From Escherichia coli (GTDB lineage Bacteria > Pseudomonadota > Gammaproteobacteria > Enterobacterales > Enterobacteriaceae), in NCBI RefSeq assembly GCF_003334315.1, contig NZ_QOWR01000127.1: DNA of 898 nucleotides; one strand, 5' to 3'. Every line of letters starts with the position of its first letter. The stretch's first letter is position 1. Below are positions 269 through 898 of this stretch, piece by piece. The notes under the pieces are model-generated. The model saw nothing but the letters and a program-made list of their open reading frames with translations, did no database searches and was not told the origin of the DNA. The translations under genes were made by a program, and so were the position numbers.

Positions 269-487
269 ATGAACGTTTTAAGACACGTTAATGCGATTAA
301 CATGGGAGTGTGCATTCTAATTTGGGTTATTGGATGTGCAAATGCTAAAGTTCTTAAACGATGTATATTACCCGCTCCTGATGGTGGCGTAGAAAAACTA
401 TCAAAACCCAACTTACATGGAGTAATTAAAAAAGTTGATTTGAACACAAATGAAGCGGAAATTAAAATAAAAGAGGGGGGGCAGTGA
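269..487 (+). CDS. Putative small lipoprotein, 72 aa as written; possibly the N-terminal part of a longer frameshifted gene
   Basis: ORF from the track. Shine-Dalgarno-like GGAGAGAG at 253..260, about 8 nt before the ATG at 269. The N-terminus MNVLRHVNAINMGVCILIWVIGC has a basic n-region, a hydrophobic core and a lipobox-like V-I-G-C with Cys23; Ala at +2 suggests outer-membrane sorting by the Lol rule. The mature part is Lys-rich, as expected for AT-rich acquired DNA. No family recognised. Confidence 0.55.
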   Translation: MNVLRHVNAINMGVCILIWVIGCANAKVLKRCILPAPDGGVEKLSKPNLHGVIKKVDLNTNEAEIKIKEGGQ

Positions 488-660
488 GTTTTATTTTTAA
501 TGAGGAAACATTGTATTTTACTGTTTTTGGTGGGGATTTTATTATGGATGATTTAAAAAAAGTAAAAAATACGGAAGCATGGGTATGGTATAAAAATTGC
601 GATAGTAAAAATAAAAATGTGGCAGTTGAACTTCTTCAAATCTACGAATTGCATCAATGA
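484..660 (+). CDS. Small ORF of 58 codons from GTG 484 (or 38 aa from ATG 544); probably the C-terminal part of the upstream lipoprotein gene, separated by a frameshift in a G7 tract
   Basis: The frame is open from 466 to the TGA at 658..660, about 65 codons without a stop in ~30% GC DNA, which is unlikely by chance. Translation: VSFIFNEETLYFTVFGGDFIMDDLKKVKNTEAWVWYKNCDSKNKNVAVELLQIYELHQ. GTG 484 lies only ~3 nt after the G-run (poor spacing for initiation); ATG 544 has GGTGGGG at 529..535 with ~8 nt spacing. It is not in the supplied ORF track, presumably because it is short. Confidence 0.4.
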   Translation: MSFIFNEETLYFTVFGGDFIMDDLKKVKNTEAWVWYKNCDSKNKNVAVELLQIYELHQ

Positions 661-724: not shown

Positions 725-806
725 GCACTAAATAATTCGCGCTAATGTTCAATAGTTAATATATCCCTCATCAGGGAAAGATCACCGGTGTGCCGTAGGC
801 ACAAAG

Positions 807-829
807 ATGCAAAACGGGACGTTTTGCAT
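807..829. repeat. Inverted repeat ATGCAAAACG-GGA-CGTTTTGCAT (10-bp arms, 3-bp spacer); possible operator or RNA hairpin
   Basis: Perfect arm complementarity seen directly. A 6-bp-stem inverted repeat TGTGCC-GTA-GGCACA lies at 789..803 and an 8-bp palindrome CACCGGTG at 783..790. No T-run follows, so it does not look like a classical terminator. Confidence 0.3.
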
Positions 830-898
830 GTAATAAGCATAAGCTTGTGAAGAGATGGTGGCAGGCCCACCGGGATCTGCTGTCGGAAGTCGGTCCCA

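Follow-up and report, generated by a model that had tools for sequence, protein, structure and literature searches.

The last part of a stretch of Escherichia coli DNA of 898 nucleotides, which is referred to as a whole as the window, raises the question of whether it contains one end of a gene that continues past the window edge. In a preliminary description of the window, positions 742–898 were said to be GC-rich and open in several frames on both strands up to the edge, and were taken to imply a flanking gene, the strand of which could not be chosen. To answer the question, the flank was compared with the sequence that follows it in a complete chromosome, with complete E. coli genomes, with Rfam and NCBIfam and with related loci. 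We conclude that the flank is ordinary mobile-element debris, which is already known and is non-functional.

A group II intron remnant at the window edge

The whole window is 100% identical to part of the chromosome of E. coli PSS-13 (NZ_AP027704.1), and a 16.9-kb region of this chromosome (locus L001, in which each coordinate equals the window coordinate plus 8000) was used to extend it. In order, this region carries dnaQ, a tRNA-Asp gene, a partial tssD, IS1, two small ‘hypothetical’ ORFs, an ISAs1-family transposase gene and yafV, with the transposase CDS lying on the plus strand at window-equivalent positions 1091–2227, followed by yafV.

Within this region, positions 788–898 represent, with high confidence, the beginning of a defunct 5′ remnant of E.c.I9, a class D group II intron; this stub lies on the plus strand, is 159 nt long and ends at position 946. 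The GTGTG 5′ splice-site motif at 788–792 aligns with the first nucleotide of full-length E.c.I9 and comes right after a terminus of the H-rpt element, placing the GUGYG motif of a group II intron 5′ end exactly at the exon junction. Across 788–946, the sequence is identical to nt 1–159 of the full-length E.c.I9 of strain ATCC 8739 at 157 of 159 positions, and to REL606 (NC_012967, 242510–242668) at all 159, the window holding the first 111 nt of this segment (788–898). These same REL606 coordinates were listed by Leclercq & Cordaux (2012, PLoS One 7:e52268; PMC3522654, Tables S2/S3) for E.c.I9-tr2, a 159-bp fragment found ‘in another Rhs region’ in BL21, BL21(DE3) and REL606, and the assignment of E.c.I9 to class D is also theirs (PMC3522654, Table S2). 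Since positions 788–946 are identical to the published E.c.I9-tr2, the feature has already been catalogued.

The sole strong Rfam match was to RF01999 (group-II-D1D4-2, a domain I substructure), which aligned on the plus strand from 857 to 977, with 857–898 inside the window, and scored 81.8 bits against a gathering threshold of 36 (E ~1e-16, model positions 1–118). The same family was found at the same offset in full-length introns, with 105.5 bits in strain EC-1639 (L006), 92 bits in ATCC 8739 (L010) and 113.7 bits in Sinorhizobium meliloti (L005). We rejected the match at 857–977 as a complete unit, because an alignment with the 193-nt version of the stub at locus L003 puts the end of the intron at 946 and not at 977. 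The last ~31 nt of the match (947–977) are the ISAs1 terminus, GGGAAAGATCAcGTAACGcTGATTT, which stands in for the intron’s own next hairpin, GAACGATCAGACGAGATCTGATC; this 34-nt hairpin is present in the L003 version and has been deleted at the window’s locus. In the full-length intron, nt 153–167 (CAGGGGGAACGATCA; L010, corresponding to window 940–960) resemble the H-rpt left terminus, CAGGGAAAGATCA, and it is because of this resemblance that the Rfam alignment extends into the IS. The resemblance might also have favoured a junction at nt 159.

The stub also has the character of a structured RNA. A perfect 10-bp hairpin on the plus strand at 806–828 (ATGCAAAACG-GGA-CGTTTTGCAT), recognised in the sequence and in the minimum free energy fold, is a stem of intron domain I, and in the full-length intron it is conserved but for one G-to-A change that converts a C-G pair into a U-G wobble in the RNA. 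When the 159-nt stub was folded as RNA, its predicted free energy was −63.9 kcal/mol (z = −3.55 relative to shuffles).

ISAs1/H-rpt ends on both sides of the stub

Immediately 5′ of the stub, on the plus strand at 771–787, lies a copy of the ISAs1/H-rpt left terminus (CAGGGAAAGATCAC) followed by CG, which together form the 5′ exon of the intron homing site, with positions 771–784 repeating the H-rpt terminus. A terminus of 13–15 nt precedes the intron start in every locus examined (L001–L004, L008, L010 and L012). On the 3′ side, a complete ISAs1 element begins at ~947 with the same terminus, right after the intron sequence ends at 946, and has its right end about 1.3 kb outside the window. 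In a BLAST search of 5,426 complete E. coli genomes, the sequence from ~947 onwards proved to be the left end common to all ISAs1/H-rpt copies, thousands of which, including those of K-12, start matching at L001 8944–8947, that is, at the terminus itself. The 5′ exon reads GATCACCG in the window, GATCACG in ATCC 8739 and GATCATC(G) in other loci, so that its junction has drifted by one base. At two other Rhs loci, the terminus occurs twice in tandem just 5′ of the intron start (L003 4988–5016 and L004 4988–5015), with a partial IS1 pseudogene directly upstream of the tandem termini.

A further H-rpt end, in decay, lies at 693–771 on the plus strand. This relic corresponds to the initial ~78 nt of an ISAs1/H-rpt left end, with 81% identity (65/80) to positions 946–1024 and an alignment score of 81, compared with a maximum of 27 in 300 shuffles. 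It ends where the next terminus copy starts, and bases 742–770 of the flank belong to it. The next H-rpt terminus follows the relic directly; H-rpt copies have therefore inserted into each other’s left ends, and the locus provides an example of how mobile elements in Rhs regions nest within and erode one another.

A scan of positions 600–1150 for promoters and terminators yielded only a terminator-like hairpin in the relic (701–716; L001 8701–8716) and weak sites near the start of the transposase gene, with no site inside the stub. The palindrome of the relic, AGCATCACGTGATGCT, runs into a stretch of T (701–725 in all), an arrangement like that of an intrinsic terminator, just after an immunity-like gene.

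Loss of the catalytic and mobility functions

The remnant comprises about the first 40% of ribozyme domain I, and domains II–VI are missing. In full-length E.c.I9, EBS1 (TGATGAT, which pairs with the IBS1 ATCATCG) occupies nt 265–271, past nt 159, and its counterparts lie at nt 268–274 (CGTCCAG) in the EC-1639 intron and at nt 267–273 in the 1,884-nt intron of the S. meliloti plasmid pSymB; this agreement in position between two related full-length introns places EBS1 outside the stub. An EBS2/IBS2 pairing of E.c.I9 was not found by simple complementarity. Domains D5/D6 (RF00029), which are present in L006, L010 and L005, had no match anywhere in the 16.9 kb of L001. Likewise, there was no reverse transcriptase (RT)/maturase CDS or long ORF between the stub and the ISAs1 transposase gene, and no RT gene in L001. 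With EBS1, domains II–VI and the RT all absent, the stub can neither splice nor move, and judging from its sequence we consider it inert.

Distribution of the stub and a possible new role

The unit at 772–946 was detected by BLAST in 2851 of the 5426 complete E. coli genomes (53%), usually once per genome and almost always unannotated, while the interior of the intact intron (nt 194–794) was covered to at least 80% in only 105 genomes (~2%). This excess of stub over intact intron agrees with the published view that such introns survive mostly as inactivated fragments. Stubs of other lengths were found elsewhere, measuring 97 nt (L008), 147 nt (L004, the RhsE/pptA locus), 193 nt (L003) and 460 nt (L012). 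They all share the 5′ junction of the window copy, and in each the intron sequence gives way to a complete H-rpt left terminus that points in the same direction. With the 159 nt of the window copy, this series adds detail to the published account of group II intron extinction in Enterobacteriales and leaves the overall picture unchanged.

That so many genomes carry the stub invites the idea that it has been co-opted, which could have happened in either of two ways. The transposase might still recognise the outer 15-nt terminus as an end and mobilise terminus, stub and ISAs1 together, as one longer IS, between Rhs loci; alternatively, the RNA might form a 5′ leader that insulates or tunes expression of the transposase gene, its structure protecting this gene from transcription entering from the Rhs toxin and immunity genes upstream. 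If true, such a reading would explain how the stub came to be in 53% of E. coli genomes and the intact intron in ~2%, a roughly 20-fold difference. It is consistent with the presence of the same unit, with the H-rpt terminus as its left boundary, at several different Rhs/PAAR loci, with the stable fold of the stub and with its location on the transposase strand, 145 nt upstream of the ATG when the IS leader is counted. The length of the stub, however, differs among loci (97, 147, 159, 193 and 460 nt), so that no single structure has been kept, and H-rpt copies of the K-12 type do entirely without it. Furthermore, neither a promoter-like nor a terminator-like site lies inside the stub, and its near-identity among loci fits recent spread or gene conversion, either of which could account for its near-invariance. 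We therefore regard co-option as improbable, and this holds for the longer-IS and the insulator versions taken jointly. The reading of the stub as inert debris is the one retained below.

No gene across the window edge

What, then, of the open frames? The stops, peptides and composition shift given in the preliminary description all proved to be where it had placed them. One minus-strand frame runs without interruption from 898 to a stop at 782–784, its peptide ending in TADPGGPATISSQAYAYYMQNVPFCIFVPTAHR, and another to a stop at 742–744; a third minus frame, absent from that description, is also open, down to a stop at 771–773. On the plus strand, frames starting at GTG 847 (VKRWWQAHRDLLSEVGP...) and ATG 855 (MVAGPPGSAVGSRS...) reach the window edge without a stop. 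As for composition, the flank is GC-rich relative to its neighbours (53% G+C for 781–898 versus 33% for 205–692) but not in absolute terms, with values of 51% for 1–204 and 55% for 788–946.

To assess how unusual these frames are, positions 742–898 were subjected to 5000 mononucleotide shuffles. The codons open to the edge sum to 197 over the six frames, compared with a mean of 107 (sd 36) in the shuffles, 0.8% of which equalled or exceeded the observed sum; the two longest frames combined were equalled in 14%. The scarcity of stops in the flank is therefore real and mildly unusual, somewhat above chance. Since three frames of one strand are open together, it is better explained by non-coding sequence with few stops than by a gene, and the G+C content of the stub, its self-pairing and its few stops in six frames are explained by its being the leftover of a structured RNA and not of a coding sequence.

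Extension of the sequence past 898 gave the outcome that the preliminary description had itself named as counting against a gene. In NZ_AP027704.1 (window numbering), the plus frames stop at 921, 934 and 983, and the open stretches of the minus strand start no further out than 956, 979 and 1020, so that all six frames are closed within ~120 bases of the edge and the flanking gene that had been implied is absent. The nearest real gene is that of the ISAs1 transposase on the plus strand, which starts 193 nt past the end of the window. The suggestion that the flank is native DNA or DNA of different origin next to a cassette holds in its second part, the different origin being that of mobile-element debris in which ISAs1/H-rpt ends accompany the stub of a group II intron.

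We accordingly consider it extremely unlikely that the flank is the end of a minus-strand gene or the start of a plus-strand gene continuing past 898. Several frames do reach the edge and stops are rarer than in the shuffles, and in one genome a ‘hypothetical protein’ annotated by PGAP covers part of a related stub (L008 3283–3561). Against this, the longest start-to-stop ORF across the flank has only 72 aa (742–960, minus strand), five flank peptides had no match in NCBIfam at E ≤ 1, and RefSeq records no feature on NZ_AP027704.1 between the small ORF ending at 660 and the transposase start at 1091, just as most of the matches in other genomes are without an annotated feature. Moreover, the flank is accounted for base for base by intron RNA and IS termini. 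The PGAP call in L008 extends into the first 46 nt of the related stub and is probably a spurious gene laid over intron and IS debris.

The possibility that the G+C-rich segment is a remnant of a G+C-rich Rhs core or of another chromosomal gene can be dismissed as hardly credible: it does lie in an Rhs region, with the tail of an Rhs toxin gene and an immunity-like gene directly on its 5′ side, and a few of its matches overlap CDSs annotated ‘RHS’ (H71, H81), but those matches are confined to the H-rpt portion of the query, starting at its position 157 or 206, while the segment itself aligns to E.c.I9, matches the model for group II introns as well as full-length introns from their nt 1, and is matched at ~79% by Sinorhizobium and Rhizobium intron copies. 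An IS1 fragment was also rejected, because the partial IS1 pseudogenes annotated by PGAP upstream of related copies fall outside the shared unit, which starts at 771.

In annotations, this stretch is best described as a non-coding remnant of a group II intron (E.c.I9-tr2) flanked by ISAs1/H-rpt ends and not as a candidate gene. More generally, the remnant of a structured RNA, being G+C-rich and stop-poor in six frames, can mimic coding sequence.

Upstream context of the flank

The window opens with the left end of an IS1 on the minus strand, including the start of insA (1–204), which has 98–99% identity to thousands of IS1 copies; PGAP annotates a transposase CDS at L001 7452–8149 (minus). IS1 truncates an Rhs toxin gene on the plus strand, of which only the last 28 codons and the stop (205–291) remain; these align in frame with the end of the RHS core CDS of strain PM4 (L002 2855–7087). 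Overlapping this tail, a 130-codon gene at 269–660 (plus strand), annotated as DUF4367 in PM4, is split by comparison with PM4 into two ORFs, 269–487 (72 aa) and 484–660 (58 aa), with a run of seven G at 475–481 where PM4 has eight. Its position directly after the Rhs toxin gene suggests that it is probably an Rhs immunity gene. The N-terminus of its product resembles a lipoprotein signal (…LIWVIGC).

The IS1 junction lies between window positions 204 and 205 here and between 303 and 304 in REL606, which places IS1 100 bp further upstream in the window strain than in REL606. PM4 retains an intact Rhs gene and carries an IS1 instead inside the downstream H-rpt left end. Elsewhere in L001, between lpcA and yafJ, an Rfam match to naRNA4 (CssrE, RF02564; 74.1 bits, 14981–15058) is unrelated to the stub.

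A proposed history of the locus

The identity and boundaries of the stub, its missing parts, the absence of a gene and the nested truncations are observed directly; from these we infer an order of events and a mechanism of deletion. E.c.I9 would have retrohomed into its natural target, the left end of an ISAs1-family element (Rhs H-rpt), where it entered between nt 15 and 16. This element had probably inserted earlier into the left end of an older H-rpt copy, of which the relic at 693–771 is left. Later, a complete H-rpt left end may have come to sit inside the intron, likely by a second H-rpt insertion and recombination with the resident copy, by deletions promoted by the IS end, or by both, whereby all sequence 3′ of intron nt 159 would have been lost.

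Because retrohoming copies the intron into cDNA from its 3′ end, abortive reverse transcription would leave 3′ fragments. A 5′ stub with an exact 5′ junction thus argues that the whole intron inserted first and that its 3′ part was lost afterwards. A series of deletions that all share an IS end as one breakpoint is the classic signature of IS-promoted adjacent deletion, and the same set of deletions would also follow from H-rpt insertion into the intron and recombination with a resident copy. An intermediate, in which an H-rpt interrupts the intron and the 3′ part is kept, was not found among the partial matches to the intron interior that were compared (L012 and L013), these being further 5′ stubs or decayed copies, so that no intermediate documents the proposed order.

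Comparison with known relatives

The closest relative of the window copy is the published E.c.I9-tr2 of BL21, BL21(DE3) and REL606, which is identical in sequence and shares its class D assignment, its flanks and the Rhs-remnant locus between aspV and yafV. Relative to the REL606 copy, the fragment itself shows no difference, and only the upstream IS1 junction differs.

The full-length E.c.I9 of ATCC 8739 (L010; NC_010468, 2411599–2413485) measures 1887 nt, encodes a 440-aa RT/maturase and carries D5/D6 (RF00029, 61.9 bits). Its first bases, GTGTGCCGTAGG (GTGTGCCGTAGGCACAAAGATGCAAAACGGGAC...), abut CAGGGGAAGATCACG, and on its 3′ side the H-rpt left end resumes as the 3′ exon and leads into the transposase gene, so that the intron lies between H-rpt nt 15 and 16. 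The window copy has the same 5′ exon, the H-rpt left terminus, and the same orientation relative to the ISAs1 transposase; it differs in ending at nt 159 and being followed by a fresh H-rpt terminus, whereas the ATCC 8739 copy continues with H-rpt nt 16. EBS1 itself varies among E.c.I9 copies, reading TGATGAT in ATCC 8739 and TCGTGAT in the O121 strain that carries the 460-nt stub (L012 ~3071–3077), in parallel with two variants of the H-rpt left end, …GATCATC/A… and …GATCACG/T…. This covariation of EBS1 and IBS1 looks like retargeting, as far as can be read from the sequences. The ATCC 8739 copy sits behind the exon variant that does not match.

Leclercq and Cordaux also described E.c.I9-tr1, orthologous fragments of 193 bp in seven strains, including EDL933, Sakai, IAI1, SE11 and E24377A (PMC3522654). 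These fragments and the 97-, 147- and 460-nt stubs derive from the same intron and have the same 5′ junction and the same type of 3′ junction with H-rpt as the window copy, with other truncation points and at other Rhs loci.

In EC-1639 (L006), a complete group II intron with RF01999, RT/maturase and D5/D6 (RF00029) splits an ISAs1 transposase ORF. It is a related class D ribozyme with ~86% nucleotide identity to the window over 102 nt and an RT 60% identical to that of E.c.I9. Like E.c.I9 it targets H-rpt, but it homes into the transposase coding region (after ...CGTCTGGACG) and not into the IS left end, and its EBS1 reads CGTCCAG. By its matching length alone (1891 nt), we class it as E.c.I2-type, and it may be the one that Knoop & Brennicke first reported in 1994.

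More distantly, the RF01999 segment is ~79% identical to many copies on Sinorhizobium and Rhizobium plasmids. Among these, the 1884-nt intron of the S. meliloti 1021 plasmid pSymB (L005), with ~79% identity over this segment and an RT 56% identical to that of E.c.I9, carries EBS1 at the same position in another host and at another IS target. We take this intron to be probably RmInt1, the model intron of class D. For the probable RmInt1-type intron, decay into fragments has been described in Sinorhizobium genomes (PMC4181065, PMC4496777).
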